Source: a virus | DNA: 43,403 nt | IMG/VR virus record: IMGVR_UViG_646564589_000005 | Strand: one strand, 5' to 3' | Shown: piece after piece, positions 34,500-34,728 of the stretch | Layout: each line of letters begins with the position of its first letter | Numbering within the stretch: position 1 is the first letter of the stretch | Program-made: the position numbers and the translations under genes | Notes under the pieces: generated by a model | Seen by the model: the letters and a program-made list of their open reading frames with translations, nothing else | The model's database searches: none | What the model was told of the DNA's origin: nothing

Positions 34500-34728
34500 T
34501 CGTTAATTAAAGCAGTTCCCAATCTGGTTTTGCGAAGACTGATTATTGATGACATGAACGGCTTATCGACCTGATGGAATCCTGACATAAAAAATGGCTC
34601 TCTGAAGCCGTGCGGTTTTTTAGGCTTATCAGGTGCGGAACTCATCGAGGCGCGGGCATCCCTGCCCATAGTGACGCCGGATAGATTTAAGCAAGCCAAC
34701 ATCAATCAAAAATCAGTGTTGCAAAAAA
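34500..34728 (+). ncRNA. Predicted bridge RNA / seekRNA region
   Basis: Non-coding end downstream of the transposase, with segments matching both strands of the target and of the circle junction (see findings). Boundaries approximate. Confidence 0.75.

Follow-up and report, generated by a model that had tools for sequence, protein, structure and literature searches.

In a 43,403-nt stretch of viral DNA (IMG/VR record IMGVR_UViG_646564589_000005), referred to here as the window, the 3' non-coding end of an insertion sequence is predicted, with a probability of roughly 85%, to be transcribed into a two-module guide RNA of the seekRNA/bridge type, in which one module carries guides for the target and the other carries guides for the donor ends. 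The element that encodes it is an intact member of the IS1111 group. A sequence-only reading of the same DNA had proposed a guide RNA with readable target and donor guides in an intact element, and the evidence laid out below, drawn from other copies, from relatives and from two more distant elements, bears on each part of that proposal. In the sequences given here, a caret marks an insertion point or a junction between joined ends.

The left border reads AAGGCGGT^TAATGAG at 33396/33397 and the right border CCATAGA^TTTTTATTTT at 34743/34744, in agreement with the borders first proposed. Both are fixed independently, because 17 other copies end alike and two nested copies show the intact empty site. 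Comparison with that empty site (GCGGT^TTTTT) shows that target duplication is absent. Together with the window copy, 18 full copies are present in the element's own genome, with 99.9-100% identity and identical ends, and all 18 are inserted in the same orientation relative to the target consensus. The same genome holds further pieces, including two copies interrupted at position 1221, several 127-bp tails, one copy truncated to positions 610-1347, and one 73% relative. The features of the window copy are collected in Table 1.

Table 1. Features of the insertion sequence and of its predicted guide RNA, in window coordinates.
Feature	Position	Strand	Basis
Left flank of the window copy, GCGGT (target -5 to -1)	33392..33396	+	15 distinct sites
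Whole insertion sequence, 1347 bp, without target duplication	33397..34743	+	Shared ends of 18 full copies; nested copies give the empty site
Left-end extension (left tip), 7 nt, TAATGAG	33397..33403	+	Common to relatives apart from a few variants
Left subterminal inverted repeat ATGGTCCCCACC	33404..33415	+	Reverse complement of 34729-34740
Transposase gene, 334 aa plus stop	33466..34470	+	PF01548 2.8e-21, PF02371 5.8e-23
Predicted two-module guide RNA, closed by GGCUU (34560-64) / AAGCC (34693-97)	34560..34697	+	Minimum-free-energy fold and consensus fold (26 relatives)
Module 1, predicted target-binding stem-loop; outer stems 34569-77/34626-34 and 34581-85/34620-24	34569..34634	+	Fold
Module 1 5' loop strand CAUAAAAAA, complementary to top strand T^TTTTTATG; predicted right-target guide	34586..34594	+	Flank covariation
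Module 1 inner hairpin U-GGCU / AGCC-G	34595..34610	+	Folds; GGC/GCC invariant in 26/26
Module 1 3' loop strand GCGGUUUUUUA, sense of target top strand; predicted left-target guide	34612..34622	+	Flank covariation; sister insertions between 34616 and 34617
Module 2 5' loop strand GGAACUCAUCGA; CUCAU (34641-45) complementary to left-tip positions 3-7; candidate right-donor guide	34637..34648	+	UCAU invariant in 26/26
Module 2 stem GGCG(C)/CGCC with apical hairpin GGGCA/UGCCC	34649..34678	+	Folds; apical hairpin sequence varies among relatives
Module 2 3' loop strand GGAUAGAUUUAA; AUAGAU (34681-86) equals right tip ATAGA plus first left-tip base; candidate left-donor guide	34679..34690	+	AUAGAUU invariant in 26/26
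TTGCAA, candidate -35 box; 17-nt spacer, then GA^TAAT across the joined ends	34719..34724	+	Read from sequence; TTGCAA conserved in relatives
Right subterminal inverted repeat GGTGGGGACCAT (34729-34740) with 3-nt extension AGA	34729..34743	+	Sequence
Right flank of the window copy, TTTTTATT (target +1 to +8)	34744..34751	+	15 distinct sites

The IS1111 group is recognised by repeats in subterminal position, by an extension of 7 nt on the left and by a long non-coding region at the 3' end (PMC11187229; PMC11208160). When repeats are judged as inverted repeats of 7-17 bp inset from the tips (7 nt on the left), the element carries subterminal inverted repeats of 12 bp, set in by 7 nt on the left and 3 nt on the right. 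It has 273 nt of non-coding DNA downstream of the transposase gene against 69 nt upstream, and its insertion is specific for site and orientation and leaves no duplication. The span 33397-34743 is classed on these features as an intact IS1111-group member of the IS110 family, within the IS4321/IS5075 clade. Its predicted guide is classed as an IS1111-group guide, and not as an IS110-group bridge RNA in the strict sense, because the non-coding region lies at the 3' end, the repeats are subterminal and the match to the top strand is located 5' of the match to the bottom strand. Such an order is reported for IS1111-type seekRNAs, whose two matches overlap at the insertion point (PMC11187229).

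The transposase, whose length falls within the 330-350 aa applied as a criterion, contains the N-terminal PF01548 and C-terminal PF02371 domains, both above their curated cut-offs, and aligns to the solved recombinases ISCro4 (1.7e-15) and IS621 (2.5e-13). D10, E53, D90 and D93 fall on the aligned catalytic acidic positions of the ISCro4 and IS621 chains, and T255, within the motif GLVPRQYSTG (pattern GL-P----S/T-G), is aligned to the IS621 serine. The protein is thus identified by alignment as a DEDD transposase with its catalytic residues intact. Open frames were found in 20/20 main-type transposase N-terminal matches of its own genome. The description of the element as intact is consistent with the 18 full copies, the open transposase frame and the catalytic residues in place, and the near-identity of those copies, together with their open transposase frames, suggests that the element was recently active.

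The surroundings of the window copy add several observations. The element is flanked by a 728-aa open reading frame (30712-32898, minus strand), presumably encoding a VgrG-type spike protein, and by a 405-aa open reading frame (34977-36194, minus strand), presumably encoding a tyrosine integrase, both judged by eye only. In the left flank, a promoter-like TTGACA, 16 nt, TATTTT (33328-33355, plus strand) that matches the consensus only points into the element, and this site could drive the transposase gene of the integrated window copy. The 73% relative, which carries a 1155-bp passenger (C1:1364923-1367433), lies at a paralogous copy of the window's intergenic site (33370-34775), about 70 kb away, where the left flank is identical to that of the window copy (..AGACTATTTTTAGCAAGGCGGT) and the right flank is similar (..TATTTTCTGTCTTTTTTATTT). 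At C1:3471196-3473281, a full copy is followed by one T and then by the copy truncated to 610-1347, an arrangement that could reflect either an off-target insertion or a deletion.

The 18 copies represent 15 distinct sites, each a distinct flank pair, and these define the target. From -5 to -1 the sites carry G15, C10/T5, G15, G14 and T15, and from +1 to +8 they carry T15, T15, T15, T14, T11, A8, T8 and G9 (n = 15). The resulting consensus is GYGGT^TTTTTATG, that is, G-Y-G-G-T ^ T-T-T-T-T-A-T-G, always in one orientation. A target consensus among other copies was the check that the sequence-only reading had put forward, and these 15 sites supply it.

Folding of 34560-34700 places the two strands that match this target in a single structure, a stem-loop with an 8 x 8 internal loop in which CAUAAAAA (34586-93, with A34594 adjoining) lies 5' of the hairpin and GCGGUUUU (34612-19) lies 3' of it. 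The 3' strand GCGGUUUU corresponds to GCGGT^TTT in the sense of the top strand, and the target matches of the two strands overlap at T^TTT. The strings from which the target guides had been read, GCGGTTTTTTA at 34612-34622 and ATAAAAAA at 34587-34594 around a GGCT/AGCC hairpin (34596-99/34606-09), occur at exactly these positions, with one refinement: the 5' target strand is best read as CAUAAAAA(A), 34586-34594, the complement of T^TTTTTATG. Both module 1 stems are kept in the consensus fold of 26 distinct sequences, and the outer stem shows compensatory changes in five pairs (columns 19/86, 24/81, 25/80, 26/79 and 27/78 of that fold). A comparison of the element's non-coding region with Rfam 15 gave no family above chance.

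The target assignment is carried by relatives in which guide and flanks change together. One genome per species was scanned, which yielded 80 loci with transposases 69-99% identical; both ends were found in 65 of them, and these comprise 26 different guide pairs, 20 of them with flanks that could be used. Left flanks agree with their cognate loop strand at 4.75 of 5 positions and with non-cognate strands at 1.98 of 5, while right flanks score 7.20 of 8 with the cognate and 5.39 of 8 with non-cognate strands. On neither side did any of 20000 permutations reach the cognate score (n = 20), and the outcome was the same with 17 guide pairs. Across the 20 guide pairs, the segments therefore change with the target in related elements, as described for seekRNAs. 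Elements annotated as IS4321/IS5075 in this set carry the loop strands AAAACGGAA / AUAUUUUC for flanks ..TATT^TTCCGTTTT, and elements of this type sit at ..GCTTTATT^TTCCGTTTTC. The flank consensus and this covariation together support the proposal of a guide RNA with target guides. A sister lineage with the repeat ATGGTCTTCCCC (L037-L045, from several same-genus species) was also observed repeatedly at ..CTCCCTTGCAGGCTACGGGAGT^TTTGTTTCGCC.., a hairpin-containing repeated sequence, and its loop strands GGGAGU and GAAACAAAA fit that site.

Module 2 folds as a 12 x 12 internal loop around a GGCG/CGCC stem with an apical hairpin. The strings first assigned to donor guides, CTCAT at 34641-45 and ATAGAT at 34681-86, are found at these coordinates, as is the GGGCA/TGCCC hairpin between them (34654-58/34663-67). 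Among 20000 shuffles, 11302 contained a 5-nt antisense match such as CUCAU, which by itself is not significant; 2971 contained a 6-nt sense match, and 497 had the two matches in the correct order. Taken alone, the donor matches are weak, so that their weight comes from the comparative data only. No change in UCAU or AUAGAUU occurs in any of the 26 relatives with these tips, while their target loops differ. Such invariance is predicted by a model with two guide loops, but a protein-binding motif would predict it likewise. A second motif that resembles the right tip, CCAUAG at 34666-71, was rejected as a donor guide, since relatives differ here although each of them retains the tip CCATAGA.

Discrimination was sought among other IS110-family genes from same-genus genomes, which provided two IS1111-type elements with other tips, designated IS-A and IS-B. 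Their transposases are 34% identical to the studied transposase, and their borders were set by the rule of 7-nt and 3-nt extensions together with three copies (IS-A) or one copy (IS-B). In IS-A (three copies, 1438 bp), the joined tips read ..CATATA^GAATGTAAT, and the strands 5' and 3' of the homologous stem are AUUACAU-CGA and AUAUAGA; in IS-B (1340 bp), the joined tips read ..CCATATA^TGATGTG, and the corresponding strands are ACAUCAU and AUAUAUG. Each donor strand of IS-A and IS-B fits the tips of its own element over 7 nt, and the spacing between the two donor matches is 40, 40 and 39 nt in the three elements. Such double matches were obtained in 31 (IS-A) and 19 (IS-B) of 20000 shuffles. 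In both IS-A and IS-B the target loop agrees with the element's own flanks as well. Module 2 strands thus fit the tips in the studied element and covary with the tips in two lineages of 34% transposase identity, as a donor loop of the bridge RNA type would. They are likely donor guides that read the joined tips, and this part of the earlier proposal draws its support from comparison, through the 26 relatives and the covariation in IS-A and IS-B.

The alternative that survives best, although it is considered unlikely, is a single-loop seekRNA in which module 1 guides target choice, the transposase finds the ends by means of the subterminal repeats, module 1 does so by means of the flanks, and module 2 serves as a conserved scaffold for protein binding or processing without a pairing role. 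The invariance of the donor strands in close relatives suits it. The left-tip variant TAATAAG, present at three loci, suits it as well, as the three relatives with TAATAAG have a guide without a compensating change; another variant, TAATGGG, occurs at one locus. Additionally, the two donor strands partly pair with each other in folds and can thus fold together. For ISEc11, transposition needed no more than a 70-100-nt RNA carrying the target regions, and donor flanks had to match the target for circle formation (PMC11187229); its authors describe the role of the long RNA as not established. Since the short RNA was sufficient there, module 2 may be dispensable. Against the single-loop alternative, both strands change with the tips in three lineages with 34% identical transposases, at homologous places and with the same spacing of 39-40 nt, and donor loops have been predicted in IS1111-group elements by Durrant et al. 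(PMC11208160). The two-module reading is preferred, and this comparison supports, at the level of sequence, a second loop in IS1111-type elements that reads the donor; the experimental seekRNA study (PMC11187229) left the role of the long RNA open. A handshake-like reading of the junction between right tip and right flank by the 3' strand of module 2 is not claimed; among relatives with targets that do not begin with TTT, two lineages fit it (the IS5075 type and L050) and two others, L049 and L048, do not, while in IS-B the fit extends over 10 nt.

Site choice raises a further alternative, in which the protein picks terminator-like hairpins followed by a T-run and the matches to the guide are secondary. 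The T at -4 in 5 of the 15 sites forms a C-A mismatch to the guide, which shows that pairing over 9-10 nt is not a strict requirement. Nor is such pairing enough, since about 70 further G[CT]GGTTTTTT sites in the genome hold no copy, and a short match alone does not account for the choice of site. A stem of at least 5 pairs ending no more than 2 nt from the insertion point is found at 8 of 15 sites, compared with 16% of random positions, and several relatives sit between a hairpin and a T-run. Such stems are also present at 20 of 54 unoccupied G[CT]GGT^TTTTT sites, which indicates that the stem follows from the sequence motif, and 4 of the 15 sites, including those of the window copy and of the guide DNA, have no stem of even 4 pairs. 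Where the target of a relative is not a terminator, as for IS4321/IS5075 in the end repeats of transposons, the loops are altered accordingly. Selection of terminator-like structure by the protein is hence regarded as highly improbable beside selection by the guide. The idea that the targets are intrinsic terminators was considered and set aside for the same enrichment at used and at unoccupied same-motif sites, and no structural requirement is claimed. Within the window itself, 34594-34621 (plus strand), comprising the inner hairpin and GCGGUUUUUU, scored as terminator-like in a simple scan, so that the guide region resembles the hairpin-plus-T-run sites often used by the element.

Covariation of sequences cannot separate an RNA guide from a DNA guide, and the guide might act as DNA, pairing in the manner of single-strand transposons, or the match might be a captured copy of the target site. 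This is scarcely credible, given that for four IS1111-family members and one IS110 member the purified transposase carried RNA of this region, which was sensitive to RNase and functioned in trans (PMC11187229), and that both target strands are represented here around a covarying hairpin, as in the published RNA design. Chance can be practically dismissed as the source of the target and guide matches: the target is T-rich, the genome is rich in A+T, and allowing one mismatch gives an expectation of 1.34 occurrences of GCGGTTTTTTA per window, but the arrangement of CATAAAAA, 10-30 nt and GCGGTTTT is present a single time in the 43-kb window, where shuffles predict 0.01, and chance would also have to account for the cognate and non-cognate scores that none of 20000 permutations matched.

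The guide-RNA reading suggests the following course of events, in which the RNA nature of the guide, its binding by the transposase, the circle with its junction promoter and the chemistry of strand exchange would all correspond to what has been published for relatives. The element would excise as a circle, by homology with tested relatives, and its joined ends would create a promoter (TTGCAA, 17 nt, GA^TAAT) from which the transposase and the guide RNA could be made; a promoter at the circle junction has been described for the family (PMC11187229). In the resulting complex of RNA and protein, module 1 would pair with both strands of GYGGT^TTTTTATG, and module 2, through CUCAU and AUAGAU, would pair with the left and right tips in the joined form of the circle. 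This pairing would lead the DEDD transposase to integrate the circular form of the element at G-Y-G-G-T ^ T-T-T-T-T-A-T-G, in one orientation and without duplication, with strand exchange at the single shared T.

The guide gene is itself a site of insertion. The guide-coding DNA of the 3' strand reads GCGGTTTTTTAGG, a near-perfect copy of the element's own target, and of the 23 GCGGTTTTTTA sites in the genome, 19 fall within own guide DNA. Two loci each have a full copy placed inside another copy, exactly between GCGGT and TTTTTAGG, and at one nested locus the outer copy lies at GGGCGGT^ inside the guide DNA of the 73% relative. These arrangements of the own genome (C1:1836058-1839149, C1:649485-652307 and C1:742990-743116; L004, L010 and L008) include, besides the nested copies, solo tails of 127 bp, corresponding to element positions 1221-1347, which directly follow some right ends. 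These tails may be most simply explained by recombination between nested copies. Self-insertion shows the inherent price that an element pays when it carries its own target in sense orientation.

Other elements occupy the ends of this lineage. An apparent variant left end, with ATACA in place of TAATG in five copies and in the 73% relative, was discarded once a foreign element of 1155 bp was recognised between positions 7 and 8; the true left flank of these five copies and of the 73% relative is again G[CT]GGT^TAATGAG. This 1155-bp element has six copies in the genome (L017:2841-3995 and five more), always between the 7-nt left tip and the left repeat and in inverse orientation, five times in the studied element and once in the 73% relative. 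It encodes a 318-aa IS110-family transposase (PF01548 8e-18, PF02371 2.7e-16), preceded by 183 nt of non-coding DNA at the 5' end. Read in the orientation of this 1155-bp element, the site is GGGGACCAT-CT-CATTAACC, with CT at both junctions. Its non-coding region contains AACCAUC and GUUAAUGAG around a hairpin in an internal loop, together with ACAGUUGCUUG, which equals its own joined ends; a comparison of the 1155-bp element with Rfam 15 gave nothing above chance. The 1155-bp element looks like a bridge-RNA element programmed against the left end of the studied element, and a diverged copy was observed at the same place in another species (L046). The composite copies are 99.9-100% identical, which is compatible both with movement as a unit and with five independent insertions of the passenger.

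IS-A (same-genus genome G001; L110:1-3601 and L112) offers a comparable observation at the opposite end. Two of its three copies lie at TTGCAAAAACGAG^..^G.., and in L110 the far side continues as GAAGACCATAGA, which puts IS-A within the right-hand subterminal repeat of an IS1111-type element from the studied lineage, a second instance of a guided element landing in another's end. A broader scheme can be entertained tentatively, although it is more doubtful than the guide-RNA reading itself and on balance rather improbable: own guide DNA would be among the best targets, repeated splitting of sister guide genes would generate nested arrays and solo 127-bp tails, and same-genus guided elements would hit the ends of the lineage (a CT-core IS110-type element at the left, an IS1111-type element in the right repeat), so that a layered transposon-on-transposon network would limit or reshape copy number.

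The element is a clean and recently active addition to the RNA-guided IS1111 group, with a short and easily read target. The approximately 20 natural pairs of guide and target on one conserved scaffold should be useful for learning the pairing rules of seekRNAs. Two extras accompany them, namely insertion into its own guide gene and a second, predicted RNA-guided element aimed at its left end.

The mechanism is already published in the form of seekRNA and bridge RNA, and the known mechanism is unchanged by the studied element. The recombinase is homologous to those of IS621/ISCro4, whose bridge RNA (Durrant et al. 2024, PMC11208160; Hiraizumi et al. 2024, PMC11208158) likewise contains two internal loops; in each of them, one strand repeats the left half of the DNA partner in sense and the other is complementary to its right half. 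The bridge RNA of IS621 lies upstream of the gene and has its left guide ahead of the right one, whereas the predicted guide lies 3' of the gene with the strand order reversed; reversed order and 3' location together correspond to the published IS1111 arrangement. A CT core dinucleotide, which enters into all four pairings, is shared by target and donor in IS621, whereas only one T is shared here (GCGGT^T.. and ATAGA^T..) and the neighbouring positions differ. The studied element thus lacks the shared core dinucleotide and the left-end RNA upstream of the gene with the left guide first that define the IS621 type, and it further differs from IS621 in its long subterminal repeats and in an aligned nucleophile that is Thr, not Ser.

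The seekRNAs of ISEc11, ISXne4, ISKpn4, ISPst6 and ISPa11 (Siddiquee et al. 2024, PMC11187229) resemble the predicted guide in setting, with a non-coding region 3' of the gene, subterminal repeats that lie 7 nt in from the left tip, insertion that leaves no duplication and a promoter at the circle junction, of which only a candidate is present here. These seekRNAs are known by pull-down, sequencing and reprogramming, whereas the studied guide is known from sequence alone. Strands matching the donor are not described in the seekRNA paper (PMC11187229), in contrast to module 2 here.

The closest known elements are IS4321/IS5075, together with ISSfl8. The transposase is 71.4-71.8% identical to annotated IS4321/IS5075 genes (tblastn) and 79-80% identical to proteins named IS5075 and ISSfl8; a search of a plasmid collection for more distant relatives was saturated by IS4321/IS5075 (at least 5000 records) and added names and identities only. 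The target of IS4321/IS5075 is reportedly, to go by a title of 2003 attributed to Partridge and Hall, the end repeats of Tn21-family transposons. Both share with the studied element the tips TAATGAG ... CCATAGA, the architecture and a 3' non-coding region that aligns over its whole length, in which scaffold and donor strands are identical. They differ in the target, ..GCTTTATT^TTCCGTTTTC as opposed to GYGGT^TTTTTATG, and only the two module 1 strands differ accordingly. The pair formed by IS4321/IS5075 and the studied element is, as read from this alignment, a case of natural retargeting.
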